The translations under genes were made by a program, and so were the position numbers. Source: Candidatus Doudnabacteria bacterium (GTDB lineage: Bacteria; Patescibacteriota; Doudnabacteria; UBA920). Taken from it: a DNA stretch of 64,000 bases. This document shows positions 1 through 41,780 of this stretch, piece by piece (within the stretch, counting starts at the first letter, position 1; the number at the start of each line of letters is the position of its first letter). The notes beneath the pieces are model-generated. The model ran no database searches. It worked only from the letters and a program-made list of their open reading frames with translations, and had not been told where the DNA came from. Location of the stretch: positions 11,915 through 75,914 of the forward strand of contig CAWINB010000001.1 of NCBI GenBank assembly GCA_963837465.1. The letters run 5' to 3'.

Positions 1-1
1 G

Positions 2-3540: not shown

Positions 3541-3964
3541 GCGGCGCACGGCGAAACCTTGCGCTAACGACACAACCTCACCTCTGCCGCCCAGGGCCAA
3601 GGGTAGCCAGCGAGGCGCGGAAGCAGCGAACTCGCGAAGAGTTTGTCCATCGCCCTGCGGCATCGCTGCGGCCCTCAACACCCAGGACCACAAGACCCGT
3701 CGCGATTGACCTTAGCTCGCCCGGTAATATTCGACTGGCTTGTGCTCGATACCGGCCCGCCCGCCGGCATCGGTTTCAACACCACCGACCCGACCGTCCC
3801 GGCGCCGATCGCCGCCACGAACCCGCCCCGACCGGCCGGATTCGGCCACCCGGCTCCCGATCGAAGGCCGACGAGCCCACGACGGGCCGGAAACGACCGT
3901 CTGAACCGTTCGGATGAGCTCGCAAGTCGCAAATCGCGCCGACCCGACCCGAAAATCCGGTCGG

Positions 3965-4035
3965 GGCGGTAACGCCTAAAAATGGAGCTTGACCCCATTC
4001 GTTACGCATACTAAAATGCGTAGATTACGCAAATT
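3965..4035. promoter_or_regulatory. AT-rich island with TTACGCA direct/inverted repeats (iteron/operator-like) upstream of the Rep-like gene.
   Basis: TTACGCA at 4002 and 4025, inverted TGCGTAG at 4017, related GTAACGCC at 3969. Low-GC patch inside ~70% GC DNA. Confidence 0.4.
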
Positions 4036-4375
4036 TCCGCAGCGGCGCGGTAGATTAAGACGGCAGAGTCCCGTCAGCAAGCTTAAAAACCCAGAAGTCC
4101 GGGCCGGGCGGATCGTCCCACGAACCCCTTGCATCTGAGCCACCATCACGAGACGATGGGAGGGCACAAACGGAAACGGCCAGGAGCCATCAACTCCCAG
4201 CCGCTCTTGACTCGGTTTCGACCTCATGGGGAGGCCGGCCGATCGCCGTGCGCCCTTAACAGCAGAAGGGACGCAATCGATGACCATCATACACCGCGGG
4301 CCGTCCCCGGGGAAGGGGACGGCCGTTGGGGTTTGCGCACTCAGGCCGGGACTCACCGGCCGGGGAGGTGCACCA

Positions 4376-5086
4376 TGAGTGCATCGGCCCTCTTCGCCAA
4401 GAACGGCGACTTCTACATCCCCGTCACCGTCCAGCTCGCACAGATCCCACGGGGCGACCGCACCGCTGCCTGGCTGGTCTACTCCGCACTGGTCGACAAC
4501 CTCCGGCCCGGACAGACCGTCCTCGGCGAGCGGTTCACCGACCGGGTCCTCCGCCAAAGCCCCTGGCTGCATGGGTACAGTTACCGGTTCGTCCAGAAGG
4601 GGCTCCACGTCCTCGAGCAGTGGGGGATCATCAAACGGGAACGCGGGCACGGCCGACGGATCATCACCTTCACCGGCCGCCTCAGGCCCTCGGGCAAGAC
4701 CGCCAGACCCGAGCCCAAATCCCCCGACAAGCCCAAGCCCAAGCCCAAGCCCGGACCCGCACCAGGACCGGACAGCACGCCCCTGACTCCCGAGCAGATC
4801 GCCGCCGCCGACAGGGCCCTCCAGCAGAAGTATGCCCAGGCCCAGGCCGAGGCTGACGACGACCCCGAGATCCAGGCCCAGGCCGACCAGTGGCGACAGC
4901 GCGGCGCCGAGCTCGCACGAAATGCGCAGCGAGAAGGCCAAAGCCAAGCAGGCCAAGCTCGAGGACCAGGCCCCCAAGAATCCAGAGGCCACCCGGGCCG
5001 AGGTCCAGGCACTCATCGCCGGACTGGCCGCCGCCATGAGGCCTCCCGAGGACCACGGCAAGCCACACGACCCCTCCGGACCCTGA
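4376..5086 (+). CDS. Putative winged-helix DNA-binding protein, possibly a plasmid replication initiator, with Pro/Lys-rich linker and acidic/Gln-rich C-terminus. Possible frameshift near 4920.
   Basis: N-terminal ~100 aa (AAWLVYSALVDNL...YRFVQKGLHVLEQWGIIKRER) looks like a wHTH. The C-terminal part continues in the ORF 4832..5086 frame (EKAKAKQAKLEDQ...). Confidence 0.4.
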
Positions 5087-5289
5087 CCCTCAGGACCAAC
5101 GGGCGATCACCCGAAACGCGACGGCCGCCCACCCCGTAGACGCTAACGCCGAGCCAGCCTGACCGACGTGCACCTATCCGCACGGTCGGTCTTGGTGCCG
5201 CACTCCACTCATGCACACCACCAAACCGCGGTCAACCCATCAACAAATCCATGTTCTTTTCTTTACGACCCATGCTATCGCACCGACGA

Positions 5290-5337
5290 ACGATTGCACC
5301 CACATCAGGGCGCAGGTGCAATCGCACCACGGTGCGG
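5290..5337. promoter_or_regulatory. Inverted repeats GATTGCACC/GGTGCAATC and CGCACC/GGTGCG in a lower-GC patch (candidate operator/origin element).
   Basis: 9-bp perfect IR separated by 15 bp, followed by a second short palindrome. Lies between the Rep-like gene and the par locus. Confidence 0.35.
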
Positions 5338-5879
5338 TTTTCTTAATGGAGTCTATAGCGCAAGACTAAAACCTCACGTCGGCTTGAGGCGGCCTATGGC
5401 CTGCCGACGTGGCGCAGGAGGGAGTCGCGCGAACACCTGGCGAGATGGCGGCAGCCCAGGAAACCCCCGGCCGTCGTGCATCCACGCAATCATGGAAACC
5501 ACTCCCCTGCCCTTCGCCGCCGGCCTGGTTTCCGACGGCCGCGCCCGGCGGCTCCCCAGCCCCGTCCTGGGCCGTGCGGGCGTCGGGCCGAGGGATCGGG
5601 CGGGCGGGCCGGCGGTCGCGGCAGAGACGGGCGGGGAGGGCCATTCCGGAGACGGGACGGCAACGCACCGGAGATCCCCCCTGCCCTGTCTCACCTCGGA
5701 TGGAGTAATGCCGAGTTTCTCGGACCCGGCCGGCCGACACCTCAAACTTACGACGTCATCGGCCAGGGCGTCCCAGGCATATCGACGGCAGCCCGGCCCA
5801 TCATACTCAGAACCCAGAGGACCACGGTTCCATAGACCCTCGGGCCTCAGAGCACATGGGCTCCTGATACCCTGGTTCT

Positions 5880-6600
5880 CGGGACATATCGGCTCAGAGT
5901 TCCTGGAGCCTGAAAGCCTATGAAGCCGCGGGACTTCAGGCTCGGAGGCCTCCCGGCCCGTGAGATTTCAGCCCCATGGGCACGCGAGTCCCCAGGCTCG
6001 TGAGCCCGCGATACCCTGGCCCTCGAGAACGATGGGCTCAGAATTCTTGGAGGCTGAAGGCTCATGAAACCGCGGGATTTCAGGATCGTAAGTCTTTGGG
6101 CCTGCGACCATTTCGGGACCACGGGCGTTCGGGTTCGTGGGATTTCAGGTCCATAGGCCCGCGGCACCGAAGGCTCCAGGGTGAACAATCCCGCGGGCTT
6201 GCGGACTTCTGGGCTCGCAGATCTCTAGGCTCGCGACCCTCTAGGCTCGCGACCTTCTGAGCCCATAGCGCTTCGGGCCTGGGGACCTCTGGGCCCGTGA
6301 GCTTCCGAGCCCATGGGGCTTCGGGCCTGGGAACTTCCACGCCCGCGAGCTTTCAGGACCGTAGACCTTCAGGACCGCAGCCTTCTGGACCCACGAGCTT
6401 CCGAGACCGCAGCGCTTCGAGCCCGAGGACTTCCAGGTCCGCGAGCTTTCAGGACCGTAGACTTTTAGGACCGCAGCCTTCTGGGCTCACGAGTTTCCGG
6501 GACCGCAGAGCTTCGGGTCTGGAGCCTTCCAGGCCCGCGAGCTTCCGGGCCCGCAGCGCTTCGAGCCTGAAACCCCGCGGGCTCCCGGTCCTTCGATGCG
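5880..6600. repeat. Degenerate tandem-repeat array upstream of parA (centromere/parS-like or iteron array).
   Basis: Repeated 12-20 nt submotifs (gagcttccgagc, cttcgggcctgg, ttcaggaccgtagac, ttctgggc). A ~96-bp higher-order unit repeats 2.3x from ~6340 to 6570. A ~140-bp unit occurs at 5891 and 6034. Confidence 0.75.
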
Positions 6601-6659
6601 GAAAGCCTCAAGGCTTGCGGGGTCATAGCCGATGAGGAGACACAGCAGGGAGGTAGGGC

Positions 6660-7478
6660 ATGCGTTCCATCGCGCTGGTGTCCGAAAAAGGCGGGTGCGG
6701 CAAGTCAACGACGGTCCTCAACACGGCGGCCTGCATGGCAGCCGGTGGGCTCCGGGTCCTCGTGGTGGACACGGACCCCCAGGCGAATTCCAGCTACGTC
6801 CTCCTCCGCGGGGAGAAGCCACGCCGGCCGGCGCTCCTGGAGGTTCTCGCGGCCGAGGCGGAGGCCCGGGAGGCCATCGTCCCATCCCCATCCTTCGCAG
6901 GCGTGGACCTCCTGCCGGCGGACCCGACGCTGGCGGACGCCACGGTCATGCTGGCGAACGAGGTGGGACGGGAACGACGCCTCCGCGTGGCGCTCGAGGA
7001 GATCGGGGACGACTACGACATCATCCTCGTGGACACGGCCCCCACGCGGTCGCTCATCACGACGAACGTTCTGAACTTCGCGGAGGAGATCCTGGTCCCG
7101 ATCGCTCCGGGACTCTTCGGCGTCCTCGGCCTCGGCCAGCTCCAGGCGGACGTCGCCCAGGTCCGGCGGTTCCTGGACAACAAGGCCCTCCGCATCGGCG
7201 GGATCCTGCTGACGATGGTGGAGAAGAACAACGTGGCCAAGGACCTCGAAGGGCAGCTCCGCCAGCTCTTCGGCGAGCTCGTCTTCCGGACCAAGATCCC
7301 GCGATCCATCAAGCTCGAAGAGGCGCACTTCCGCCACGAGTCCATTCTGGCCTACGCCCCCCGGAGCGTCGGGGCGGAGGCCTACAAGGCCCTCACGCAG
7401 GAGATCCTGGACCATGGCCGAGAAGAAAACCGGATTGACGGTACCCGCGGGAATCCTTCAACCCACCACGCCGCTTGA
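6660..7478 (+). CDS. parA: ParA/Soj-family partition ATPase.
   Basis: Deviant Walker A VSEKGGCGKST, ParA-like body, 272 aa. 4-nt overlap with the downstream RHH gene. Confidence 0.9.
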   Translation: MRSIALVSEKGGCGKSTTVLNTAACMAAGGLRVLVVDTDPQANSSYVLLRGEKPRRPALLEVLAAEAEAREAIVPSPSFAGVDLLPADPTLADATVMLANEVGRERRLRVALEEIGDDYDIILVDTAPTRSLITTNVLNFAEEILVPIAPGLFGVLGLGQLQADVAQVRRFLDNKALRIGGILLTMVEKNNVAKDLEGQLRQLFGELVFRTKIPRSIKLEEAHFRHESILAYAPRSVGAEAYKALTQEILDHGREENRIDGTRGNPSTHHAA

Positions 7479-7746
7479 AGACCCATCGGCCGAGGAAGGG
7501 CAGGGGGACGGCCCCGCCCGGGACGAGGGCCAGGAATCCCGAGCGGCCTCCAAGGCGGCCCGGAAAAATAAGGTCACGGACAAGGCCAGCTCCGGGAAGG
7601 TCGAAGGGCGGCGGCTCTACCTGTCGGAAGGCGTCCACTTCCGGCTCCGGCTTTATGCCTACCAGCGCGGTCAGAAACTCTCCGACGCGGCGGAGGAACT
7701 CCTCGACCGGTCCTTGCCGAAATGGGACGTCAGCCGGGTAGGGTAG
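7414..7746 (+). CDS. Ribbon-helix-helix (CopG/ParG-like) small DNA-binding protein, probable centromere-binding partner of ParA.
   Basis: Disordered acidic/basic N-terminus then an RHH-type C-terminal domain (GRRLYLSEGVHFRLRLYAYQRGQKLSDAAEELLDRSLP). Start overlaps parA 3' end. Confidence 0.65.
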   Translation: MAEKKTGLTVPAGILQPTTPLEDPSAEEGQGDGPARDEGQESRAASKAARKNKVTDKASSGKVEGRRLYLSEGVHFRLRLYAYQRGQKLSDAAEELLDRSLPKWDVSRVG

Positions 7747-7855
7747 GGCGGGGGGAGAACCCCCTCCTCAGAACCGGCATCACCCGGAGAGTCGGGCGAG
7801 GCCGGAACGCCGTAGGGCAGGGGAGGCTGCCAAGGACAACCCAGGAGGCCGCGTG

Positions 7856-8303
7856 ATGAGCAAGCGGGACGAATCGAGGAAAGCCTCTCGGGAGGTCGCT
7901 TTGGAGTCGATGGGATGTCCCCAGGCCGTCGTCAACGAGAAGGGCAAGGGCCGCAAGCTGACGCTGCCCGACAGCGTCTTCGACCGGCTGGTGCTCACGG
8001 CGATCCAGCGCGGGTACACCGCCTCGGCGATCGCCGCGGAGATCCTCGACCGGAACCTGCCAGGCTCCGAATCGCCAGCGATGAATAAGCCAGGGCCGAG
8101 AAAGCTTCAGCGCAGCCAGGCGCATCCGGGGCCGGACGATCTACCTGCCGGACGACCTGTTCGAGCGGATCCTGGTCCAGGCCCATCGCCGCGACCGGAC
8201 CATCAGCGAGTACATCGCCGGCATCCTCGAGCGCCAGGTCCCCGACCACCGGATCGCCCGCGCCGAGCCGGCCAGCGAGTCGACCGAGGCCGGGACGGCG
8301 TAG
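7856..8303 (+). CDS. Protein with two tandem RHH domains, paralogous to the ParG-like protein. Apparent 1-bp frameshift near 8135 (ccggggcc run).
   Basis: RHH1 = GRKLTLPDSVFDRLVLTAIQRGYTASAIAAEILDRNLP. RHH2 = GRTIYLPDDLFERILVQAHRRDRTISEYIAGILERQVP in the -1 frame. Both align to the ParG RHH. Confidence 0.5.
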
Positions 8304-8436
8304 GTCCTGTGGGGCAGGGGAGGGCCCTGATGGTCGAGAATGCGTGCTATTGGAGTTCATTTTTTTCGTTGCAGTTCCCCACAAGACGTGCAATAATCCC
8401 TCGGTAGTTCTTGTTATTCACCGAGGAATCATTGCA

Positions 8437-9045
8437 ATGGCCGAGCCGGCCACCAAGATGAAAGCGGCGTTGGAGCTGGTCCGCGAGCAAGGGATGCTCC
8501 GGCCCCGCGACCTGTCCCGGCGCGACATCCCGCCCGACTACCTGGACCGCCTCTACCGGCTCGGGCGGGTCAACCGCGTCGCGCGGGGCCTCTACGCCTG
8601 GCCGGATGCCGAGGTGGGCGAGCACCATAGCCTCGCCGAGGCCGCGCGCCTCGTCCCCGCGGGGGTTGTCTGCCTCCTGTCGGCGCTGCGGTTCCACCGG
8701 CTGACCACCCAGTCACCCCGCGAGGTGTGGCTCACCCTCCCGAGCAAGGCGTGGGCCCCGAAGCTCGAGTACCCGAGGCTCCGGATCATCCGGGCCGGCG
8801 GCCCGGCGCTGACGGCGATGGTCGAGGAACACCGGATCGAAGGGGTCCCCGTGCGGATCTACGCGCCGGCCAAGACGGTGGCCGATTGCTTCAAGCATCG
8901 CAGCAAGGTCGGGCTGGACGTGGCCCTCGAAGCCCTCCGCGACGCCTTCCGGGGACGGAAGGCGACGATGGACGAGCTGTGGGCCGCGGCCCGCGTCTGC
9001 CGGATGGAGAACGTGATGCGGCCCTACCTGGAGTCCCTGGTATGA
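8437..9045 (+). CDS. abiEi: AbiEi-family antitoxin / transcriptional regulator (type IV TA system).
   Basis: LLSALRFHRLTTQSP...RIYAPAKTVADCFKHRSKVGLDVALEAL pattern typical of AbiEi. ATGA overlap with the downstream nucleotidyltransferase gene. Confidence 0.8.
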   Translation: MAEPATKMKAALELVREQGMLRPRDLSRRDIPPDYLDRLYRLGRVNRVARGLYAWPDAEVGEHHSLAEAARLVPAGVVCLLSALRFHRLTTQSPREVWLTLPSKAWAPKLEYPRLRIIRAGGPALTAMVEEHRIEGVPVRIYAPAKTVADCFKHRSKVGLDVALEALRDAFRGRKATMDELWAAARVCRMENVMRPYLESLV

Positions 9046-9963
9046 CGCGGGGGAATCCGAAGGACATGGCGGCCTCGGTGCGACAGCGGCTGCTCAACCT
9101 CAGCCGCCAATCGGGGGAGGACTTCCAGCGGCTGCTGACCCGGTATGGGATGGAGCGGTTCCTCGACCGGCTGTCCCGCTCGGAGCACGCCCCGCGGTTC
9201 GTGCTCAAAGGGGCCCTGCTGTTCGCGCTCTGGACGGGCGAGCTCCTCCGGCCGACGCGGGACCTCGATCTGCTGGGATTCGGCGACAGCAGCGCCGAGG
9301 GCATCGCCGAGGTCTTCCGATCGCTCTGCGCCTGGAAGTGGCGGACGACGGGCTGGTGTTCTCCGCCGAGACGGTGTCCGTCGAGCCGATCCGCGAGGAT
9401 CAGGAATACGGCGGCCAGCGGGTGAAATTCGAGGCGCGCTCGGGCAAGCCCGGATCGACCTCCAGGTCGACATCGGCTTCGGGGACGCGATCACGCCGGG
9501 GGCGGAGTCCGTCGCATACCCGACGCTGCTGGGCATGGAACCGCCGCGGCTCCGCGCCTACCCGCGCGAGACGGTGGTGGCGGAGAAGCTCGAGGCGCTG
9601 GTGAAGTTGGGGATGGCCAACAGCCGGATGAAGGACTTCTTCGACCTGGCCGTCCTGGGCCGGTCGTTCGCGTTCCAGGGCCCGGTCCTACGGGATGCGA
9701 TCGTCGCGACGTTCCGGCGCCGGGGGACGGCGGTCCCGACGGAGCTGCCGATCGCCCTGGGCGATGCCTTCGCCAAGGATGGGGCGAAGCTGGTGCAATG
9801 GAAGGCGTTCGTGAGCCGCAATGGCCTGGAGGGGAGGGCAGGGGATCTGGGGCAGGTGGTTGGCGAACTGGTCGGGTTCCTCGGCCCGCCGCTGATCGCG
9901 GCAGCGAAGGGAGAGGGGTTCGAGTGGCGGTGGGAACCGGCCGGTCCGTGGCAGCGGGCATGA
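9042..9963 (+). pseudogene. abiEii: AbiEii/AbiGii-family nucleotidyltransferase toxin (DUF1814), split across three frames by two 1-bp indels (~9335 and ~9445).
   Basis: GMERFLDRLSRSEHAPRFVLKGALLFALWTGELLRPTRDLDLLGF... continues as LEVADDGLVFSAETVSVEPIRE... and then ARIDLQVDIGFGDAITPG...MKDFFDL in shifted frames. Confidence 0.8.
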
Positions 9964-10019
9964 ACGGTCCACAAGCACCCGGATAGTGAAGGCATCGCAT
10001 CCCCGCCGGCCCGGTTGGG

Positions 10020-10095
10020 ACATCGCGGCCCGTCCGTCAGCCGGGCAGGGGAACCCGTCCGGCCCGGGCTCGCTTCGTCACCCGGATCCGGGCCG
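10020..10095. repeat. ~75-bp direct repeat, copy 1 (module boundary; possible promoter/regulatory element).
   Basis: atcgcggcccgtccgtcagccgggcagggg...gtccggcccgggctcgcttcgtcacccggatccgggccgggccgcc recurs at 11297-11375. Confidence 0.6.
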
Positions 10096-10311
10096 GGCCG
10101 CCGCGGACGGAGCGGTCGCGGCCCCGGGCGATGTCGCCCCGCTCGTCCAGCGGGATGTTCCGTCGAGGCCCTTGAGATCAGGGGGATTTCCCGGGGAAAC
10201 ACCCAACGCGGGCCGTCCGGTGGGAGACGGTCTTGCGGGCCACGGCCGGATCGAACAGGATGGCTGTCAGGGCAGAAACCGCGGCCCCATTCCGGAGACG
10301 GAGCAAACCCC

Positions 10312-10965
10312 ATGTCCACGGCCACAACGACTCGACCGACAGTCTCATCCCCGCCCCCTGGACGCCGCCACTCCACCGGATCACCGTCGACGAGTACGAG
10401 CGGATCATCGAGGCGGGTGCGCTGGAAGATCCCGGCCGGGTCGAACTCATCGACGGCTAGATGGTGGACAAGATGGGGAAGAACGCGGAGCATCGCTACA
10501 CCACCAAGAAGATCCTCAAGGCGCTGGACGGCCGACTGCCGCCGGATGGACGTCGCGAAGGAGGAGCCGGTGCGGATCCCCGCCTATGACGAGCCGGAGC
10601 CGGACGTCGCGATCATCCGGGGCACCGACGCCGATTACGAACATCGGATCCCCACGGCCGCCGACGTGGCGCTGCTGGTCGAGGTCTCCGACTCGACGCT
10701 GGTCCAGGACCGCGGCAAGAGGCTCTCGGCCTATGCAAGGGGCAGGATCCCCGTCTACTGGATCGTCAACCTGGTCAACCGCCAGGTCGAGGTGTACTCC
10801 CGGCCGGGGAAGAGCGGTTACCGGTCTCACAAGATCTTCGCATCCGGCGAGCAAGTCCCGGTCACGATCGGCGGCCAGCAGCTCCGCCCGATCGCCGTCG
10901 ATAACCTGCTCCCCCGCCGCAAAGCCACCGAGGGCAAGGGCCGGCCCAAGGGTAACGGGGCATGA
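10312..10965 (+). pseudogene. Uma2-family (DUF820, PD-(D/E)XK-like) putative endonuclease, copy 1. Frameshift ~10340, in-frame TAG at 10458, net -2 deletion ~10535.
   Basis: MSTATTTRPTVS / LIPAPWTPPLHRITVDEYERIIEAGALEDPGRVELIDG*MVDKM... / EEPVRIPAYDEPEPDVAIIRG...VYWIVNLVNRQVEVYSRPG, pieced from three frames. Paralogous to copy 2. Confidence 0.75.
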
Positions 10966-10968
10966 CCG

Positions 10969-11392
10969 ATGCCCAAGCCCATCCCCAAGCCACCGCGTGC
11001 CGAGGAGGTCCTGGCGGCGGTCGCGGCCCGGTACCCGGCCGGCGCGACGGTCACGCGGTCGGATGATCGCCGAGGTCGGCGGCGTCAACCTGGCGACGGC
11101 GGGTCAGATCCGCCAGTGGGTACGGCGCATGGGCGATGGCCGTTCGCCGACGGCAAGGGGGAGCCCGACCCCGTCAGGTCCGGCCCATCGGCCCGTCGCT
11201 GACCGGGACGGATTGGTCATAGATCGCCGATCAACCGAGCGGTGCGTCCACTCGTCAGATGGGTCCAGTCGGGAGAGCTCCGGCGGCTCGGCGACGATCG
11301 CGGCCCGCCCGTCGGCCGGGCAGGGGGGCCGCCCGGCCGGGCCGGGCTCGCTTCGTCACCCGGATCCGGGCCGGGCCGCCGGAAGATGTTGA
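10969..11392 (+). CDS. Small conserved hypothetical protein, copy 1 (MPKPIPKPPRAEEVLAAVAARYPAGATVT...). Frameshifted after ~30 aa and longer C-terminal tail than copy 2.
   Basis: First 29 aa identical to the 61-aa ORF at 12124. MIAEVGGVNLATAGQIRQW continues in another frame. Confidence 0.4.
11297..11375. repeat. ~75-bp direct repeat, copy 2.
   Basis: Near-identical to 10020-10095 with a few indels. Confidence 0.6.
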
Positions 11393-11497
11393 CGTCCCCG
11401 GCCGGCCTGTGAGTCAATGGATGTATCGGCGAGTCATGCTGATCCGCGGACCATCACCGCCACGCAAGGAAGATGACACTCGGTCGGAGTGAATCCC

Positions 11498-12107
11498 ATG
11501 TCCACCCTCGCGTCGATGCCGACTCAACCGGCGGGCCCGATTCGGATCCCCTGGCCGCTCTACCGCATGACGCCTGGAGCAATACGAGTCGCTGATCGCC
11601 TCCGGCTTCTTCGCCAAGCAGGACGACGTCCACCTCATCAACGGATACGTGGTGAACCGAATGGCCGAATCGCCCTTGCACGGCGCCGTCTGCGAAGCGA
11701 TCCGCATGGCCATCGGGGCGATCCTGCTGGCCGGCTGGCATACCCGCAGCGAGAAGGGGCTGAGGATCCCCTCGCAGATCAGCATCCCGCGCCCGACCTC
11801 GCCGTCGTGCGCGGCGACTGCGCGGGATTACTTGACCCGGTACCCCGACGCGGCCGATGCCGCCCTGGTCGTCGAGGTGTCCGTCTCGAGCCTGGACGAA
11901 GACCGGGCGATGGCCGACATCTACGCGGCCGGCGGCATCCCGGTCTACTGGATCGTCAACGTGGACGACGGCCAGGTCGAGGTCTACTCCGACCCGGGTC
12001 CATCCGGCTACCAGTCGCACGAGGTCCTCGCGCCCGGCCATGTGCTGCCGGTCGTGATCGACGGCGTCGAGATCGGCGAGATCCCGGTGGCCGACATCCT
12101 GCCCTGA
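11498..12107 (+). pseudogene. Uma2-family putative endonuclease, copy 2. Frameshift ~11575 and two compensating indels ~11790-11835.
   Basis: MSTLASMPTQPAGPIRIPWPLYRMTP / EQYESLIASGFFAKQDDVHLINGYVVNRM... / ...PDAADAALVVEVSVSSLDEDRAMADIYAAGGIPVYWIVNVDDGQVEVYSDPG. Confidence 0.75.
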
Positions 12108-12123
12108 CGGGAGTTGACCGCCC

Positions 12124-12309
12124 ATGCCCAAGCCGATCCCCAAGCCACCGCGGGCCGAGGAGGTCCTGGCGGCGGTCGCGGCCCGGTACCCGGCCGGCGC
12201 GACGGTCACGCTGCCGATGATCGCCGAGGTCGGCGGCGTCAACCTGGCGACGGCGGGTCAGATCCGCCAGTGGGCGAGGGCGTGCAATTCATACCGTTCC
12301 GAGAAGTGA
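12124..12309 (+). CDS. Small conserved hypothetical protein, copy 2 (61 aa, intact).
   Basis: MPKPIPKPPRAEEVLAAVAARYPAGATVTLPMIAEVGGVNLATAGQIRQWARACNSYRSEK. Follows Uma2 copy 2 exactly as copy 1 follows Uma2 copy 1. Confidence 0.5.
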   Translation: MPKPIPKPPRAEEVLAAVAARYPAGATVTLPMIAEVGGVNLATAGQIRQWARACNSYRSEK

Positions 12310-12315
12310 CCCCAA

Positions 12316-13130
12316 CTAGAAATCACCATAAGTCTTCACGCGGCGGGTCAGGTCGGAGATCGCCTCTCTGTGGCTCATGTGTTCCTCTCGCCTGAGCATG
12401 TCGTAGACGACGACGAATCGTCTGATCAAACGCTTTTCGAAGCCTTTACGGCTGGTGGATCTCATGGTCTGAACCAGACCCTCGAGGATGTCTGTTGGCT
12501 TCGTTCCCTCCCGGTATAATTCCTGACTGGCGCTACGGCAGTTGATCCAGACGTCGAACACGTCTGCCTCGAAATAGCTCGTCGCCTCGACGAGAAGCAG
12601 TTCAAACTCCCGGCCGGGCGGCATTGTTGCAGCCATGTCCTCATAGAATTCGCGCATCGACTTTTGGGCCTTAGCGAGCGGTTCATAGTCTTTGGAGTCC
12701 TGTTCTTGCAGGGCGTTTCTCTCCCTGGCGCACCCATGAGAAACTTGGCCGCGTAATCAGGCATCTCGGGATGACGACGCTTCGGATCATAACCCCGAGA
12801 AAAACCAGCGAACCACAAACAGAGAGAAACAAAGCCGATCACCCCGGCCGAAATCCCACCCACCAAGACGAGGGTCTTCAGTCTTGAACTTGAAGCCTGT
12901 GCGTTCTTCGGCCTCCACGGTTCGGACTCAGGGCTACCCCTTTCCTCGTCGGTCGCAGGCCGTGTCAGTGCCGGGGGAATCGGCGGCGGAGAGTCACCTG
13001 ACTTCAATGTCAACGGGAACGGGACCACGACTCCCCATCCGCACGACGGACATTTCGACCGCCGGCCAGCGTATTCATCCTTCACGCTCAGATTCTTGCC
13101 GCACGATCCACACGAGAAGCTAATCGCCAT
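12316..13130 (-). CDS. Zinc-ribbon / Pro-rich linker / single-TM protein with C-terminal soluble domain. Apparent frameshift near 12735-12750.
   Basis: N-term MAISFSCGSCGKNLSVKDEYAGRRSKCPSCG (CxxC...CxxC). TM LVLVGGISAGVIGFVSLCLWFAGF. C-terminal domain continues in the ORF 12316..12657 frame. Lies in the ~50-55% GC island. Confidence 0.45.
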
Positions 13131-13757
13131 CGATCGGCCTCCACCTAACGGCCAACACGAACGGCCACGCTTGGATCATGATATCGTGCATTATGTAGTA
13201 TTCAAGACAATCGAGCCTCCTCAGACCCCGCCGGCCAGGCAGGGGCGCCCTTCGGTCGGGGCGTTGGGCAGACCGCTCACCTACTTGCGGTCTGGGCTTC
13301 CGGTCTCGGATCATCCTCGATAATTCACCGGGGACCCAGACGACGCCCTGGTCGAGCCAGGGGCAAAGCGGATTAGTGCACCAAGCTCGTACGCACCGAG
13401 CTCCCCGCCGGGATCAGTTAGGTCGCGCCGCTCCCAAACAATTCTGTAAGCAACCGGTGAGGTACGACAACGGGGACAGATCACGTCGGCCATCGAGTTA
13501 GGCTCCCAGCAGGCCGGGATGCACTCCATTGGCATCTCCGTGCCCACTTCACAGCCTAATGCCCCAGACCTCCTTGGCTGAAACGGCGGGCCATCTGGTG
13601 ACCAGATTCCCTAACGTTAAGCGACTCTCGGATGAAGTGATGGCAGACGATCCGCTCGCGGGAAAACCCACGCTCAGTCTATAATCCGCTTGACTGCCTT
13701 TTACTTCATGACGTAGGTCTCGCTGTAAGGTGTGAGTGCCCAATAAGTTCCGAATTG

Positions 13758-14063
13758 CTACAGAGTATCACCTCGAAGGGATTCCTCAATCTTGGCCTTC
13801 AGCTCATCGGGGCCATTCACGTGCATCTTGAGGTCCTTCAGATCGCTTCCGCTAAAACTCAAAGTAACTTTTGACAGGTTCTCGTGGCCGATCGCATCTG
13901 CGACTCGCTGGCGTGCGATTTCCTCCATCTTGCTCCCGATGGAATCCCGGTTCTCTCGGAGGTATTCGTCGAGCATATCTTCGCCGTCGAATTCGAAGGA
14001 CATGATGGCTTCCACCTTCCAAATCGCTGGGCTCGGGTACTCCGCAGCAAACGGCCGAAACAC
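13758..14063 (-). CDS. Hypothetical small acidic protein.
   Basis: ORF with balanced composition in the lower-GC island. Likely starts at internal Met (MSFEFDGEDMLDEY...). Confidence 0.35.
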   Translation of the reverse strand: MFRPFAAEYPSPAIWKVEAIMSFEFDGEDMLDEYLRENRDSIGSKMEEIARQRVADAIGHENLSKVTLSFSGSDLKDLKMHVNGPDELKAKIEESLRGDTL

Positions 14064-14339
14064 ACCAAGTTCGCCGTGTGATTGGGTAGATTATCTAAAC
14101 TAAAGTATACGCCATTTCGCCGTCGATCGCAACGTCGCTTGCCGTCGCGGCTCTTGGCCTTCACGTAGCAAATGGACAAAAAACAACGCTAAGGCCGGTC
14201 TTTCCCGAAACTCAGTGGCTCAAGCAGGCCTGGGGACGTTGATTCTGTGACGGGTAACGGAACGGCTTTGAGGGGCCTTTTCAGCGGGATTTCGGCTACC
14301 CTAGGGGAGAGTGCCGAAATTGCTCCATTTCGGGATTGA

Positions 14340-15257
14340 GTGAGTCGAAGACCGGAATCGACATGGATGCTCACGCGATGGCTGGTGTTCCATGTCGCGA
14401 GCGGCCAATCGTTCTTCACAGGCGCCGCCTGCCTGATTGTTGCGGTGTGTCTGACAGCCTTGAAAAAGCAGCGTCACATACGCATAGCTCGGAACGCTCT
14501 CGTCTGTCTCGGAGGCATATTCGTCTCCGTGTCCGCGACACCGTTGTCGCCTTGGTTCTATCTCCTCCTGCTCATCGCGTCACTGCTCTGGTTGGTGGGC
14601 GAAGCGTTTGGTGGGCGGGTCTCCGGCCCGACTCGTCCTCGGGTTGCGGGTCGCTGTCGCCATCGTGTGGGTAGCGGCGGTGCTCGTCGAATTGCCCTAC
14701 CACCTCTCGCCGAGGGTTCCTCAACTCGGCCATCCGATTCTCGGAATCATCGGCGATTCGGTAACGGCCGGGATGGGTGAGCAGAAGGCCGTTACCTGGC
14801 CCCGAATCTTCGCGGACCGCTACGGCGTCGTGGTCCACGACCATTCTCTGGCGGGGGCCAATGTCGCTTCCGCGTTGCGACAAGCGGCCTCTGTTTCCTC
14901 GGACGAGCGGCTCGTTTTGCTGGAGATCGGTGGGAATGACATCCTGGGGGAGACCACCCCCGCAGGGTTTGAGGCGGGGCTCGCGGGTTGCTCTCGGCGG
15001 TCTGCCGACCCGGCCGAGTTGTTGTCATGCTTGAGTTGCCGTTGCCGCCCACGTACAACGCTTACGGCCGCATTCAGCGTCGCCTGGCTCGGCAATACAA
15101 GACCCTCTTGGTTCCCAAGCGAGTTCTGCTCGGTGTCCTCCAACAGCAGGGCTCGACCCTCGACACGATTCATCTCACCCAAGAGGGTCACCAAGGCATG
15201 GCCGACGCCGTTTGGAATGTCGTGCGGGCTGCGTACGAAGACGAGAGGCGGCCTTAG
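14340..15257 (+). CDS. Membrane-anchored SGNH/GDSL-family hydrolase. At least two 1-bp frameshifts (~14615 and ~14995).
   Basis: Three predicted TM segments, then GIIGDSVTAGMG (block I), LLEIGGNDILG (block III), and C-terminal ...LDTIHLTQEGHQGMADAVW (block V) in successive frames. Confidence 0.65.
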
Positions 15258-15353
15258 CGTTGTTTTCTGTCCGTTTGCTACTGGAAGGCCCTCTTGAAGT
15301 TCCTCGGACCCCGCCGGCCCGTCCGTGGCCCGGCCCCCCGCCCACCCCCGGAG

Positions 15354-16187
15354 TGCCGGCATCGTGCCGGCCCGGGCGGTCGGGCCGTCGTGGCCCGCCC
15401 GCTGCTCGCGCCCGCCGGCCTGGTCCCGCTCGAGGCGCCCGCCCGCCGGCCGGGCCGGTCGGAGGGCCGGCATCCTGCCGGCCACCCGCGACGGCGACCG
15501 CGACCGCCGCGGCCGACGGCGACGCCGAGCTGGTCCGCCTGGACTGGACAGCCCGCCCGCCGGTGACCGCCCGGGCCGGCCCGGGCCACCATCGCCGGCG
15601 ACGGTGACGGCGACGTCGGCCGCGGTGACGCGCACGCTGACGACGCCCAGGCCGTTGACCAGCTCGGCGACGATCGCCGCGGCGATGGGGATCCTCGCCT
15701 GGCTTCCAGAGCCGCCGGCTACGCTCAAGCGGAGACTGACGCGTCAATCAGAGAAGGGAGGGCGTGCCGCCGGCAAAGACACGCTGACGCGGGCGGACGT
15801 TTCCCAGGCGGTAGCTCGCCAGGCTTCAGGGGAATCGGAGCCCTGTTGCTTCGTAAACGACCAGCCGTCAGCCGCTCCCGACACATGCCGTGCCAGGCGG
15901 CTCACTGCGTTCGGCCCTACGGGCTACCCGCCTGTCACGGCAATATGCAGGGTCCGCGGTTCACGGGCACGGCCGTCCTGGCTGGGTTCGGCGGGCATCC
16001 TGCCCCCGGGCTTCGGCCAACACCCCCCAAGAATACCGGGGGGGGTTTTGGCCTCCGCCGAACAAAAGGTGGTCGCTTCGCTCCGCGCTATCAGTTGGGG
16101 GTAAGGAGGAGGAGAGGAGGGGGGTCTCCCCCCGCGGCCGGCATCCTGTCCGGCCCGCCCCAAGGCCACGGCGGGCATCGTGCCCGC
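15354..16187. repeat. GC-rich noncoding block with five copies of a 17-bp palindrome GCCGGCATC(S)TGCCGGC / GCGGGCATC(S)TGCCCGC.
   Basis: Copies at 15354-15370, 15466-15482, 15992-16008 (imperfect), 16135-16152 (1-nt insertion), 16171-16187. The two variants keep dyad symmetry through compensating changes. Confidence 0.6.
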
Positions 16188-16503
16188 CGCTGCCGCTGTC
16201 GCGGTGCATCGCCCGCCCGCCGCTCGCCGGCCCGCTCGTTGGCGGGCGTCCGCCCCCCGGCCACATCGCCTCATCATTCGTTTATTAGTTCACTCTTGCA
16301 CGTATGTTTCCGGAAACGACACTAGTCGATTTTCCCGGGGAAAACCGCGATTTTCCCGGATTTTGGCTTATGACAGCCATAGTGTATTTTGGTACAATGG
16401 CGGTCCCGGGCCGGCATCGGGCCGGCCCGGGAAAGCAATGGCCCCGCGAGTGCTAGTAACACCCGCGGGGCCGAGTCCGCAAGCTTATTGGAGCTCGCGA
16501 ACC

Positions 16504-17150
16504 ATGGCCACTGTAGCAGCTCCGCCGCGCCCCGTCGGCGCGGCCCCGCCCCCCGTCCGTCACGGCATCTGCCGGCTCACCCTCCGGATCGGAGGCACCG
16601 AGTACCGCCTCCGGCCCATGCCCGCCCCAGCCCGGCTTCCGCGCCGTCTGGGTGCTCAGGAAACTCGATCCGCACGGCCCGGTCGTGCACTACTCCGTCG
16701 CCCAGCCCAAGGGCGAGCCCGCCGGTTGCACCTGCCCGGATCACGAACAGCGTGGTCCATATGCAAGCACATCATGGCGCTTGCGGCGCTGGGCCTCATC
16801 GCCCCGCCGAAGGCCGCCCGGCCGGCCAAGGCCCGCACCCGGCAGCTCCACGCCAAGAATGCCCGCCAGGCCATCGCCGAGGCCAAGGCCCTGCCGGTCG
16901 AGGCCCGCCGCCACCTGGCGGAGATCGCCCCGCGCCCAGGCCTGCCCGGAGGGCTGGCAGTCCCGGCGGCGCCGCACCCGTCCTTCGCCACCGGCTTCCG
17001 CCAGGCCGTTGCCGCCCACGTCGCCCGCATCCGGCCGCGGCGGCCTATGAGCCATCTGCGATGGCTGCGGCGCGGAATTCGACCCAGATCTCCGGCGATC
17101 CCGAATTTCTGCGAAGCATGCTTGCGCGAAGGAGGTGCGCATGAACAACA
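16504..17150 (+). CDS. SWIM-type zinc-finger protein (hypothetical). Reading frame broken at ~16625 and ~16760; 3' end uncertain.
   Basis: GEPAGCTCPDHEQRGP + ICKHIMALAALGLI gives the C-x-C-x(n)-C-x-H SWIM signature when two frames are joined. Confidence 0.35.
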
Positions 17151-17476
17151 CCGAACTTCTCACTTACGTCCAGGCCGAGATCCGGCGCTGGGGGCGCTGC
17201 GGCGGCCCATGCCGCGTTCGTCGCCGATCAGCTCGATCGCATCGCGCAGCTCATCGTCGTTCACCGGCGCGAGACAGCCCGAGCAATTCGACGCGGATCG
17301 CGTGCAACGAGGAAGGCGTCAAGGAGGAAGCACTTCGAGCCGCGGCTACCGAGGGTCGGGAATCCGCACCTCCTGTCCATCTGAGCGGCCGTGCACCAAT
17401 TAGCCCGCCCCCCGCCCCACGGCCCGCCCCGCCCGTCCCGGGCGGGTCGGGCCTGCTCCCATCAGGAGATCACACC

Positions 17477-17731
17477 ATGGCGAAGAAACGACGCAAGAAG
17501 CTCACGAAGGCGGAGGCCGGCCGCATGGGCGGCAAGGCCACCGTGCGGAAGTACGGCCCCGAGCACATGCGACGATCGGCAAGGCCGGTTTCAGGCATCC
17601 GCCGGAAGTTCGGCTACATGGGCGGAGCCGCTGGCGCGATCCCGATGGCTGAAGAGGCAGGGGAAGATCCCCGAGCCTGGCCGACCCGCGACCCCGGAGA
17701 GCCGATCTTTCACGGCCTCTGGGAGCACTGA
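17477..17731 (+). CDS. Small basic protein with KGG-like repeat (MGGKATVRKYGPEHM...). Probably frameshifted.
   Basis: MAKKRRKKLTKAEAGRMGGKATVRKYGPEHM resembles KGG stress-protein repeats. Downstream repeat units appear in another frame. Confidence 0.25.
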   Translation: MAKKRRKKLTKAEAGRMGGKATVRKYGPEHMRRSARPVSGIRRKFGYMGGAAGAIPMAEEAGEDPRAWPTRDPGEPIFHGLWEH

Positions 17732-18589
17732 CGCCCGGCCCGACGAGCCCGAGGAGCCCGGTCATCGCGCAGATCCTGGCGTCGATCCGGCCGCCACCCA
17801 TCCACCGCACGACGAGAGGGATCTTCGGCTTCACGGCCGCACAGCGTGCGCCATCGCCCGAGCGACACGGGAGGATGACCCGTCATGACCAACGCCGAAC
17901 GCAAAGAGCCGCAGGGAGGCGGCGCTGAAGGCCGCCAGGACCCGCGCGGCGAAGCAGGCCACGGCCCCGGCCGAGCCCGAGGTGCCCACGCGCCCGGGAG
18001 ATCCTCGAGCGAGCCCGCGCCCTGGGCATCCACCGGGAGCGCGGCATCTACCGCTGGGCGCACGAGCTCAAGGCCGGCCATCACCCCAGGACTGGCCCTG
18101 GATGGTCCGGCAGGCCCTCCTCGGCGCCCTCGAAGTCTGGGAGGGGAAGCCGATGATCGTCCGACTTCGAGCAAGTCAACGCCCGCGGCGAGGCCTCCCG
18201 GCCGCGGGTCGATCTGAACGCCCTGGGCGCGCTCCTGGACCGCGCCGCCCTGGGCGTCGAGATGCTGCGCGGCCGGCTCCAGGCCGCCGGAGAGATCCCC
18301 GGCCCCGAGGCCAAGGCCCTGGAAACAGACCTCATCGCCGCGCTGCGGGAAGTCCGGTCGGTCCGGACCCGATCGCGGCGCCGCACCCCATGCACCAGGA
18401 GATGAGACATGCCCCGACCGAAGAAGAGCACCGACGGCCACGGGAAGGGAATCCCGCTGATCCCCTTCGAGGAGGTTGAACGCACCGGAAACCGACCTCT
18501 CGCAAGTCCCGGTCGAAGACCTGATGGACGAGCTCGCCATCGCGGGTTCCTCGTGGCCAAGGCCGATGAGGGAAGGCCCGAGCCGGTCA

Positions 18590-19079
18590 ATATTTGGGCA
18601 GGGACAGGGTAAATATGCAGTTTGAGATGCCGCTTAATAATATTATTTTGGATTTCTACGACAAACTAAAATCCGTTTCCAGCGGTTACGCGTCTTTAAA
18701 TTACGATTTTATAGAGGAGCGGGTGGGGGATTTGGTTAAGGTGGATATTTTAGTGGCCGGCGAACCCGTAGCCGCGCTCTCGGCCATAATGCACCGCAGT
18801 GTCGCCCACACCGACGGCAAAGAGCTGGTGGAAAAACTCAAAACCCTGATTCCCCGCCACCAATTTGAAATAGCCATCCAGGCTACAATAGGCGGCAAAG
18901 TCGTCGCCCGCGAAACCATCTCCGCTCTCCGTAAAGACGTTACCGGATATTTATACGGCGGCGATGTTACGCGCAAAATGAAACTGTTGAATAAACAAAA
19001 AAAAGGCAAAAAAAGGATGAAGCAGATTGGAAGAGTAGAAATCCCGCAGGAAGCGTTTTTGGCGGTCTTAAAGAAATAA
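18590..19079 (+). pseudogene. lepA: Elongation factor 4 (LepA), 3' terminal ~155 codons only. The 5' ~450 codons are missing at the GC-content junction.
   Basis: [30 protein letters not shown]...[40 protein letters not shown] matches the LepA C-terminal domain. The upstream sequence switches to ~70% GC with no LepA homology. Confidence 0.85.
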
Positions 19080-39373: not shown

Positions 39374-39449
39374 CGCGGGATAGAGCAATTGGCAGCTCGC
39401 AAGGCTCATAACCTTGAGGTTCCCGGTTCGAGTCCGGGTCCCGCAACCA
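39374..39449 (+). tRNA. tRNA-Met (CAU), likely initiator tRNA-fMet.
   Basis: CGCGGGA...TCCCGCAACCA with C1xA72 mismatch as in bacterial initiators. Anticodon loop CTCATAA. Confidence 0.8.
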
Positions 39450-39583
39450 AGCTAGTTTTGTATAAGCATAGAAAATTAGCTTGGTTAAAACCTGAAAATC
39501 GTGACAGATTTTGTGGCTCTCTGTCCGAGAGCTTTTTGCTTGCCTGATAACCTGTTAAAAGCCGACGGTCGGCTAAATCATCT

Positions 39584-39660
39584 GCCGGGGTAGCTCAGTT
39601 AGTTAGAGCGTGGGACTCATAAGCCCAAGGTCAGAGGTGCAATTCCTCTCCTCGGCACCA
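39584..39660 (+). tRNA. tRNA with CAU anticodon (elongator Met or Ile2/lysidine).
   Basis: Acceptor GCCGGGG/CCTCGGC fully paired, anticodon loop CTCATAA, T-loop TGCAATT, CCA encoded. Confidence 0.75.
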
Positions 39661-39738
39661 AAAATTAGTTAAAAGTTGAAAGTGTAAAGTCAAAAGTCGC
39701 GATACTTTTAACTTTCAACTCCTAAATTTAAACTTACA

Positions 39739-39816
39739 CGGACTGGTAGCTCAGTTGGTTAGAGCGCTCCCCTGTCACGGGAGAGGTCGCGGGTTCGAGT
39801 CCCGTTCAGTCCGCCA
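39739..39816 (+). tRNA. tRNA-Asp (GUC).
   Basis: GGACTGG acceptor, anticodon loop CTGTCAC, T-loop TTCGAGT, CCA encoded. Confidence 0.85.
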
Positions 39817-39970
39817 TCGTAAAAATTTCCACTTTTAACCAGTCTGTCAAAGGGCTGGTTTAGTGTTAAACTGAGGACTTGTTGTCTTCTATAGTAAAGT
39901 TCAATTTGCCCCAATCTGGAGAAAATTGCCGTAATTTCGCCGGAAGATTATTTTAAAAGACGACTATCCC

Positions 39971-39999
39971 TTGACAGCAGGTATTATATCTGCTAATAT
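39971..39999 (+). promoter_or_regulatory. Consensus sigma70-like promoter partly inside IRL, driving the transposase gene.
   Basis: TTGACA (39971-39976), 17 nt, TAATAT (39994-39999). Confidence 0.5.
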
Positions 40000-40029
40000 T
40001 ACTGTATAACCAGTAAATAAAGGGATTTT

Positions 40030-40899
40030 ATGACAAAATACACAATAAAGGATTTTAATAAGCAGTTTCCTAACGATAACGCCTGTTTAGAGAATATGTT
40101 TCTGTCTAGGTATGAGGGAAAGACGTGTCCGTTCTGCAATAAGCAAACTAACTTTTATAAACTTACTAACCGCAAGGCGTATTGTTGCCAAAATTGCGGC
40201 GATAGTATTTATCCTTTGGCTAATACCATTTTCCATAAATCTGAAACTTCTTTAAAGTCTTGGTATTACGCAATTTTCTTAATGAGCCAGTCTAGGAACG
40301 GCGTATCAGCTATGGAATTACAGAGGCACTTGGGCGTAACTTACAAGACGGCTTGGAGAATGGGAAAGCAAATCAGAATTTTAATGTCGCAGGAAAATGC
40401 AAAACTTAAAGGGACTGTTGAGGCTGATGAAACTTATGTCGGCGGTAAAGGCAAAAATAACAAGCGTGGCCGTGGAGCTGAACATAAGACAGCGGTATTC
40501 GGAATGGTAGAGCGTAAAGGATCTGTAGTTAGTAAGGTAGTGGAAAATGTTAAATCTTCAACTGTAATGCCGATTATGCGGTCTAGCGTGGCTTTAGGTA
40601 GTAATGTAATGACTGATGAGTTTCCTATTTACAACAGCGTTAGGAAAAGCGGTTACAATCACGGCGTAGTCAATCACGGGCAGAAACAATATGTTATCGG
40701 TAGCAAGCACACTAACACTATTGAGGGCTTTTGGTCGCAGTTAAAGCGAAGTATTGACGGCACTTATCACGCTGTTAGTCCGAAGTATTTGCAGTCTTAT
40801 GTGAACGAGTTTGTTTATCGGTATAATCAGCGTCTTGGTCTTTCCCCTTTGTTTTCGGTTCTGCTTGGACGGGTTGCGAAGCTCGCTTCAGCAGATTAA
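40030..40899 (+). CDS. IS1595-family transposase (ISXO2-like DDE).
   Basis: N-terminal zinc ribbon (CPFCN...CCQNCG), HTH (GVSAMELQRHLGVTYKTAWRM), DDE domain (EADETYVGGK...NTIEGFWSQLKR). Confidence 0.85.
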   Translation: MTKYTIKDFNKQFPNDNACLENMFLSRYEGKTCPFCNKQTNFYKLTNRKAYCCQNCGDSIYPLANTIFHKSETSLKSWYYAIFLMSQSRNGVSAMELQRHLGVTYKTAWRMGKQIRILMSQENAKLKGTVEADETYVGGKGKNNKRGRGAEHKTAVFGMVERKGSVVSKVVENVKSSTVMPIMRSSVALGSNVMTDEFPIYNSVRKSGYNHGVVNHGQKQYVIGSKHTNTIEGFWSQLKRSIDGTYHAVSPKYLQSYVNEFVYRYNQRLGLSPLFSVLLGRVAKLASAD

Positions 40900-40922
40900 A
40901 GAAGTGATTTTTATCGGTTATG

Positions 40923-41162
40923 TTATTTTGATTTTTGATCATTTAATTGAATTGTTTGTAATTGTATAAGGCTATCTATCTTTGCATTTTCTATCGTTAC
41001 TTGTTGAACTAAATTATTGCTAGTTGTAGTAATAAATTGAATATAGGCAAATATTAATCCTAGTAAAGCTAAGCCCATTACGATTACTACACCGAACAGA
41101 AATCTATAAAGTCTTTCTATTTCTGCTACTTGGCCTGTATTTGATAAATTTTCTTTAGCCAT
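40923..41162 (-). CDS. Passenger gene 2: small single-TM protein (79 aa).
   Basis: Inside the IS boundaries. TM LFGVVIVMGLALLGLIFAYIQFI. Confidence 0.45.
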   Translation of the reverse strand: MAKENLSNTGQVAEIERLYRFLFGVVIVMGLALLGLIFAYIQFITTTSNNLVQQVTIENAKIDSLIQLQTIQLNDQKSK

Positions 41163-41173
41163 TATTTTATTCT

Positions 41174-41518
41174 CTATAAGGGGAAACCAGACAAATTAGA
41201 AAATTTTTCAAATTCTGAAATAGGAAAAATCTTAATTTCTTTTGTTCTAGTATTTATAAATCCTTTTAAGATAACTCCAGAATTTTGATAAAAATTAGCG
41301 TTTGATTTATTGTGATAGTCTACCATCATTAATGCCAAAGTCCCCTCTACCTCATCCCAAGTATCAGGCTTTGAAGATGAAGCAGACAAGCTCTTATGCA
41401 AAGCCGCACTTTCACCATTTAGCTCGATAATTTTCACATCAATTTTAGCTTGGTCTATCATAGATATTCCCATTATACCACAAAACCATCGCCACAATCT
41501 TTTAAACATTAATTCCAC
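41174..41518 (-). CDS. Passenger gene 1: hypothetical soluble protein (114 aa).
   Basis: Inside the IS boundaries, immediately upstream of the TM protein gene with a 11-nt gap. No recognisable motif. Confidence 0.45.
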   Translation of the reverse strand: MELMFKRLWRWFCGIMGISMIDQAKIDVKIIELNGESAALHKSLSASSSKPDTWDEVEGTLALMMVDYHNKSNANFYQNSGVILKGFINTRTKEIKIFPISEFEKFSNLSGFPL

Positions 41519-41780
41519 CCCCTCTCATTGTAGCGGGCAAAACACCTGCTGTCAAGGGATAGTCGCCTTTTAAAAATAGGTTACAAATAGTTTGAGAAAA
41601 ACGGGGCAGCTCGATGTTCAATATAGCTGGCTTTTCCCGAAAATCAGCAAAATGGTATAATAAAAGCAGAGATTTATATACACTATTGCCCTGAATCTGA
41701 AGATTCGATCCCCGCGGAATTGCGCCAGGCAACTGATTAACGAAAGGTATTATTTAAGAACCCATTTTAAAAATAGTCTT

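Follow-up and report, generated by a model that had tools for sequence, protein, structure and literature searches.

A probable transporter insertion sequence of the IS1595 family with a two-gene passenger module in a Candidatus Doudnabacteria contig

Why does a small insertion sequence (IS) carry two short genes on the strand opposite its transposase, and are they genes at all? The question is raised by an element in contig CAWINB010000001.1 of a Candidatus Doudnabacteria assembly (GCA_963837465.1), within a stretch of 64,000 nucleotides (contig positions 11,915 to 75,914) that is referred to here as the window and whose own numbering is used throughout. A preliminary description of this DNA had proposed an intact IS1595-family element beside a tRNA cluster, bounded by near-perfect terminal inverted repeats (IRs) and carrying two antisense passenger genes. 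As a whole, the locus is probably best explained as an intact, single-copy transporter IS (tIS) of that family. A tIS is defined by passenger genes unrelated to transposition between the IRs of an IS-like unit, and between the IRs here lie two real genes, called A and B in what follows. The features of the element are as follows, from left to right.

39951 to 39958, no strand: left copy of the target site duplication, TTTTAAAA; the same 8-mer abuts both element ends
39959 to 39982, plus strand: left inverted repeat (IRL) core, GACGACTATCCCTTGACAGCAGGT; weaker complementarity runs onward to 39995
39971 to 39999, plus strand: predicted inward-facing, sigma-70-like promoter of the transposase, TTGACA-17-TAATAT, 10 of 12 consensus positions
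40030 to 40899, plus strand: full-length IS1595-family transposase gene, 289 aa, by Pfam and NCBIfam profiles
40923 to 41162, minus strand: gene B, 79 aa, with one transmembrane (TM) segment (residues ~21-44) and a Q/N-rich C-terminal helix
41174 to 41509, minus strand: gene A, 111-aa soluble protein; the open reading frame (ORF) is open back to a GTG at 41518 (114 aa)
41527 to 41555, minus strand: predicted inward-facing, sigma-70-like promoter of the A-B operon, TTGACA-17-TACAAT, 11 of 12 consensus positions
41544 to 41567, minus strand: right inverted repeat (IRR), GGCGACTATCCCTTGACAGCAGGT, with one mismatch against the IRL core
41568 to 41575, no strand: right copy of the target site duplication, TTTTAAAA, identical to the left copy

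The transposase places the element in its family. It matches the Pfam domain DDE_Tnp_IS1595 (ISXO2-like; PF12762) at 4.4e-48 over profile positions 1-153 of 153, Zn_ribbon_IS1595 (PF12760) at 2.2e-6 (28.0 bits against a cut-off of 25.4; residues 14-58) and the NCBIfam model transpos_IS1595 (NF033547) at 1.1e-66 (224.8 bits against a cut-off of 75). Relatives align with it across residues 1-284, and the protein is therefore full length. Its identity does not exceed 62% to any transposase in 185,579 species-representative genomes or 45% to any borne on a plasmid; the two nearest plasmid-borne transposases (45%, annotated as “IS1595 family transposase”) are followed by convergent hypothetical genes. 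The locus thus combines the features by which membership of the family is recognised, namely a DDE domain, a zinc ribbon, short terminal IRs and an 8-bp duplication. In the family literature, an 8-bp target duplication is stated to be a hallmark of IS1595 elements, and an N-terminal zinc ribbon is ascribed to every IS1595 group but IS1016. Opposite the 3′ end of the transposase gene, at 40775-40942 on the minus strand, is a 55-aa ORF that resembles one of 72 aa, likewise antisense, in a related locus (L066), the two having the pattern ...DYTD.QT.SHKT..TSD in common. Since both overlap the conserved transposase C-terminus, the 55-aa ORF most likely just echoes the conservation of the transposase and is no gene of its own.

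Where does the element end? The arms at 39951-39995 and 41531-41575 are 87% complementary over 45 nt, and the 24-nt core GACGACTATCCCTTGACAGCAGGT occurs twice in the window, in opposite orientation and with 23 of 24 positions identical, while none of 100 shuffled versions of the window contained a match to it. The IR pair of the preliminary description is present, but the outer 8 nt of each repeat as first drawn are the target duplication TTTTAAAA. This follows from the relatives of the element, whose ends commonly contain the motif GGnnAnTATCCCTTGAC of IRL and obey a simple rule: a conserved TATCCC lies 6 nt in from the start of the IR, and the 8 nt that adjoin this start are duplicated. In the related elements first examined, the rule led to perfect 8-bp duplications in 9 of 11. 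On the window it gives an element of 1609 bp (39959-41567) with TTTTAAAA on both sides; the length of 1625 bp assigned earlier had included both copies of the duplication. TTTTAAAA is an AT-only palindrome, and can hence also be read as an extension of the IR. With the flanks joined by a single TTTTAAAA, the predicted empty-site sequence is GCCGGAAGATTATTTTAAAAATAGGTTACAAATAG.

The insertion lies at this AT-rich palindromic 8-mer, in the spacer between a tRNA-Asp gene and an OmdA-like gene. The adjacent tRNA cluster was correctly recognised and consists of tRNA-Met, tRNA-Met and tRNA-Asp at 39374-39816, the last of which ends 142 nt upstream of the element. With a GC content of 36.9% against 45-47% in the flanks, the element is foreign to its surroundings by composition. 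A second AT-only palindromic duplication, ATATATAT, is found in a related locus (L055:2091-2098), other duplications being mixed in sequence; together, TTTTAAAA and ATATATAT hint that targets which are AT-rich or palindromic may be preferred.

A tRNA cluster is a common genomic-island site, and this would suit the idea that the two IRs are part of something larger, composite or nested. We regard that idea as very improbable. The window holds two IR copies and one transposase copy only, the 8-bp duplication abuts both IRs, and relatives with like ends are bounded by the same rule. The 64-kb window contains no further copy of the element, of its IRs or of its genes, and this, together with the duplication abutting both IRs, makes the element a single self-contained unit.

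Are its two antisense ORFs, then, unusual cargo? The transporter IS was defined on the IS1595 family (Siguier 2009), and such elements are said to be restricted to the IS1595 and IS66 families. The preliminary description held passengers to be uncommon in simple IS1595 members, which the relatives of the window element contradict for their lineage. These comprise 80 transposase loci from species-representative genomes, mostly metagenome-assembled genomes labelled Saccharibacteria/Patescibacteria, Verrucomicrobiota and Acidobacteriota, the best of them 62% identical. Elements were delimited by an IR identity of at least 13/20 together with a perfect 8-bp duplication, a rule with a calculated ~0.003 chance hits per locus. 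It delimited 33 of the 80 (among L005-L081), with GGnnAnTATCCCTTGAC ends, and all 33 carry cargo: at 1379-4556 bp they hold 0.5-3.7 kb beyond the transposase. Cargo is the norm in this lineage, and the window element is among the smallest.

What the sister elements carry bears on what A and B might be. Part of it is of the conflict type: Shedu SduA, type I/II methyltransferases with an Eco57I-type enzyme, SocA/Panacea, CdiA_C, the defence candidate PDC-S42, ClpP-like SDH proteases, a proteasome-like protein and DUF3800. Replic_Relax proteins account for 8 of 67 cargo ORFs. Ordinary cargo is also present, namely an MFS transporter, APH, prephenate dehydratase, an FAD-binding protein and an ArsR-type regulator. 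Neither A nor B was found in any of the 80 loci. As a separate observation, the more distant relatives, of the Acidobacteriota type, have a small antisense ORF of 47-55 aa, rich in lysine, where the cargo genes end downstream (L055:3076-3219, L072:4949-5092, L070:6038-6205 and L080:4930-5094). It adjoins the transposase gene in three of the four loci and lies mid-cargo in L070, and the four ORFs share the loose pattern ...F.R...L.KV...PK....

Whether A and B are genes was asked next of their own conservation. The preliminary description gave ORFs of 114 and 79 aa, 11 nt apart, the smaller with a single TM segment. The spacing and the TM segment hold and both ORFs are conserved, but the start of A probably has to be moved. 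The GTG at 41518 falls within a Shine-Dalgarno-like run, GAGGGGGTGG, and the N-terminal MFKRLWRWFCG of A is kept in relatives, as a basic, aromatic segment in many family members; the start is therefore most likely the ATG at 41509, giving 111 aa. Public gene calls have a 95-aa version. When 1.84 billion representatives were searched exhaustively with phmmer, 21 clusters matched A at E<1e-3. These clusters, which with one exception are of 75-125 aa, make up the A family and have in common the motifs DxxKIxAKIxELN, W.E[VI].G and F...G..[VL]K.F.N..TGEIK.FP. A 1607-aa match, P0016, appears to be spurious, as its Pfam domains (Lon_C, DUF630) lie outside the A-matching stretch. Exact-match look-ups gave next to nothing, word-indexed searches with A and B returned only the proteins of the window and one relative each, and the sole B relative adjoins an A gene. 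Scans of IMG/VR and of JGI metagenomes with the A-family pattern yielded nothing new, and tblastn of A against 50,697 phage records gave no match.

The copies in metagenome contig L003 allow selection to be estimated. Gene A is 55% identical at the protein level (dS 1.0, dN/dS 0.31) and gene B 83% (dS 0.64, dN/dS 0.17). From these substitution patterns, A and B are real genes under purifying selection, and the same is indicated by the 21 clusters with their motifs, by a gene order kept in seven loci and by a confidently modelled fold. The opposite view, that the antisense ORFs arose by chance in AT-rich DNA and that a long non-coding tail follows the transposase of what is a simple IS, could appeal to the composition of the region (32% GC in A, 27.5% in B) and to neither ORF having a database annotation. 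It is refuted by dN/dS values of 0.17-0.31 at dS 0.64-1.0, and by the conserved motifs, gene order and fold, and is hardly credible; the concern that the passenger ORFs might be spurious can be laid aside.

With the family alignment, the AlphaFold2 model of A reaches a pLDDT of 85.7, against an unusable 44 from one sequence alone. The model predicts a short N-terminal amphipathic helix, a long helix and a four-stranded beta meander. A has no TM segment; its N-terminal helix has a hydrophobic moment of 0.77, and the rest of the protein is acidic (pI 5.6) with no recognisable DNA-binding motif. The A profile found at best coiled-coil noise (E=0.13) among PDB sequences, and no consistent family emerged from Pfam at E<=10 across all 22 A-family members. 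A likeness to PepSY or WG repeats, suggested by the motif ...F.N..TGEIK.F..., gained support from no test and is not claimed. In B, the TM segment reaches a top Kyte-Doolittle 19-residue mean of 2.8. In five further loci the partner of A has a B-like architecture of a tail, one TM segment and a helical tail, with just 19-27% identity to the B of the window.

How would the two genes be expressed? The preliminary description placed a promoter, TTGACA-17-TAATAT, in the left IR and had it fire both outward and inward. The site is present, with the -35 TTGACA at 39971-39976 inside IRL and a TG-extended -10 TAATAT at 39994-39999, and it faces inward, 30 nt before the transposase start. The outward direction does not hold, since the sole outward-facing site there is weak (9/12). 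Nearly all relatives keep the TTGAC of the -35, which belongs to the IR, in their own IRL. A transposase promoter embedded in the element end is the usual arrangement in an IS. The right end, whose site the preliminary description had overlooked, mirrors it with the top-scoring promoter match in the region, whose -35 TTGACA (41555-41550) is inside IRR and whose -10 TACAAT lies at 41532-41527; equivalent sites are TTTACA-17-TACAAT in L003 and TTGTCA-17-TATGAT in L096. The left-end promoter would thus drive the transposase, and the stronger right-end promoter an operon of A followed by B. A-B and the transposase gene run towards each other; their stop codons are 23 nt apart and neither strand has a predicted terminator there, so that mutual antisense read-through is likely; transcription of A-B would then run antisense into the transposase gene, and probably dampen the transposase. 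The zinc-ribbon DDE transposase, in turn, may recognise the two GGnnAnTATCCCTTGAC ends and move all that lies between them, cargo included, leaving an 8-bp duplication; the duplications in the window and in relatives are what suggest this mechanism.

Does the pair travel with such elements elsewhere? We looked at nine distinct A-family loci, and in six of them A lies behind IS1595-type ends. The 83%-identical B relative led to the metagenome contigs L003 and L004. The layout of IRR, A, B and convergent transposase is found in three full elements: the window, L003/L004 and L096. The third of these (L096:1-1806) lies just upstream of mraZ, and its transposase frame is broken after ...KRSISG, by a frameshift or a sequencing error. 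In L094 an IS-type end precedes A-B on a short contig, and in L085, L086 and L087 the A-B pair is present with no IS ends in view.

A also occurs in units that have no transposase. In L089, L090 and L091, A is enclosed in an IR-A-IR cassette of 453 bp (L089:539-991) or 654 bp (L090:285-938), and in L089 and L090 the IRs are CACGTGTATCCCTT, the 8-bp duplication TGGTTATG is perfect and A is the sole ORF inside. The two cassettes come from two samples and differ by a 201-bp internal indel. They have what characterises a mobile insertion cassette (MIC), namely IS-type IRs and a duplication around passenger DNA, with no transposase. Two genes downstream of the L089-type cassette is a gene for the small subunit of a terminase (phrog_51, 3.7e-10), and, judged by its ends and its neighbours, the cassette is an IS1595-type MIC in a phage-like genome. 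L095 holds a 420-bp IR-A-IR unit with no transposase and no duplication. MICs are known from IS231, an example being MIC231 of Bacillus cereus, and are defined by IS-type IRs around a passenger with no transposase. The A-only units of L089/L090 (453/654 bp, with a perfect duplication) and L095 (420 bp) are similar, but unlike MIC231 they have ends of the IS1595 type, not of the IS4/IS231 type, and are known from sequence alone.

Cargo and transposase do not share one history. The window and L003 transposases are 47% identical (with dS saturated, so that dN/dS is not calculable), and those of L003 and L096 are 78% identical. The A proteins of L003 and L096, on the other hand, are 39% identical, and their B proteins have no detectable match, nor does the B of the window match that of L096. 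At the very point where the stop codon of B faces that of the transposase gene, nucleotide identity between the window and L003 drops from 0.9 to 0.42. The disagreement of the two histories, with the drop at the stop-codon junction, indicates that the cargo module has been swapped between transposase backbones.

These associations could mean that A, by itself or together with B, assists or regulates transposition as a factor that modulates the transposase or the ends, or is the coding part of an antisense control. A is tied to IS1595-type ends in six of nine loci and is the sole gene kept in two IR-A-IR cassettes, A-B converges on the transposase with no predicted terminator, and the right-end promoter is kept in all three A-B-bearing elements. 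Nonetheless, this is quite an improbable account. The 80 related transposase loci without A or B imply that the transposase works without them, A-B pairs occur with no IS ends in view in L085, L086 and L087, and A beyond its N-terminal helix is acidic and shows no recognisable DNA-binding motif.

It is possible, if doubtful, that A, usually with B, is an element-adapted accessory module, expressed from the right-end promoter, that serves addiction, exclusion or transposition control. The exchange between backbones, the retention of A alone in mini-cassettes and the presence of one cassette in a phage-like genome all fit such a module.

Is the pair instead host-beneficial or phage-derived envelope cargo, for example a lysis or spanin-type pair, with no role in retention? 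The B-like protein of L086 (4313-4642), the partner in a chromosomal A-B pair, matches PHROG phrog_1026, Rz-like spanins, at 2.2e-5. All B-like proteins have a TM segment followed by a coiled tail; B resembles Rz-like i-spanins and proteins of the FtsB/FtsL type in its short N-terminal tail, single TM segment and C-terminal helical tail. One A cassette lies close upstream of a terminase gene, as described above, and sister elements carry plain metabolic and transport cargo. On the other side, the spanin match is limited to one distant B-like protein and may reflect only a TM segment and a coiled coil. The B of the window, unlike Rz-like spanins, has no match to PHROG 1026, nor are an o-spanin partner, an endolysin or a holin found nearby. 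A has no match in the 50,697 phage records or in IMG/VR, and it lacks the lipobox or signal peptide of a spanin partner. Envelope cargo is, on this evidence, a rather unlikely role.

Our leading guess, a tentative one that we rate somewhat below an even chance, is that A-B is a membrane-acting module of a selfish or conflict kind. The harm or the effector activity would come from B, perhaps as a toxin, and A, encoded upstream, would be its cytoplasmic antidote or a sensor; toxin/antidote addiction, or exclusion of phages or other elements, would favour retention of the element. The gene order, the occurrence of A alone, the B relative beside an A gene, the repeated re-capture by IS backbones and the presence of conflict-type cargo in sister elements speak for such a module, and A alone in cassettes, together with a sole B relative found beside A, is consistent with antidote logic. 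Two-gene toxin/antidote or abortive-infection modules of a soluble and a membrane protein are exemplified by SpoIISA/SpoIISB and RexA/RexB. A-B is like them in being a small, co-oriented pair of a soluble and a membrane protein on a mobile element, with the upstream gene sometimes alone, and unlike them in having no sequence or fold similarity to either and no PADLOC match.

Several points weigh against our account of the locus and of its cargo. The duplication in the window is assigned by likeness to relatives, TTTTAAAA being palindromic. The element is known from one copy only, so that recent activity would be conjecture, and the promoters and the absence of a terminator come from consensus scans. 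A conflict role for A-B has no direct support. Neither A nor B matches Pfam, NCBIfam, PADLOC (E<=0.01) or PHROGs, and the confident A model has no significant neighbour among PDB and BFVD structures. A has no DNA-binding or known antitoxin fold, and B no known toxin domain. By Pfam, NCBIfam and PADLOC, the recognisable toxin and cognate antitoxin domains of a toxin-antitoxin system are thus missing from the pair, and neither protein belongs to a known anti-phage defence family in PADLOC, where sister elements do find matches. Finally, the ordinary metabolic and transport cargo of the sister elements means that the cargo slot is not specific to conflict genes.

One observation concerns the window as a whole. 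Its composition falls into two parts, 66-70% GC up to ~18.59 kb (1-18590) and 42-50% GC thereafter (18594-64000), and the low-GC part opens midway in a LepA/EF4 C-terminal-like ORF (18594-19079), as the start of a contig would. Two contigs have probably been joined within the window, or the assembly is chimeric.

How does the element compare with what has been described? Like the tIS of the IS1595 family, it has a DDE_Tnp_IS1595 transposase with a zinc ribbon, short IRs, an 8-bp duplication and passengers inside the IRs; unlike those described, its passengers are an undescribed two-gene family, and its transposase is at most 62% identical to genomic ones. Passenger-carrying groups named ISPna2, ISNwi1 and ISNha5 are said to have been set out by Siguier, Gagnevin and Chandler in 2009 (reportedly in Res Microbiol 160:232). 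The IR type of the window element, GGnnAnTATCCCTTGAC/GACGACTATC, is one that we take to resemble the ISSod11-group consensus, and that group is presumably listed without passenger genes in the published table. A full-text literature search found no relevant paper joining IS1595 with Saccharibacteria or with defence cargo.

The locus itself is an ordinary, textbook-type tIS, to which the small additions are the cargo family, its linkage to IS ends and the IS1595-type MICs. It provides a clean, fully delimited example of a tIS, with both predicted promoters and the target duplication mapped. For the IS1595 lineage, it brings into view a variable cargo slot downstream of the transposase, which in relatives includes defence and toxin genes. 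A-B is now defined as a rare, unannotated two-gene family, and a selfish function in stabilising the element or in exclusion is a reasonable candidate for it, as it is repeatedly linked to IS1595 ends, has been exchanged between backbones and survives in mini-cassettes. If A, usually with B, should prove to be an element-adapted module, no accessory gene family would have been tied to IS1595-type ends before it.

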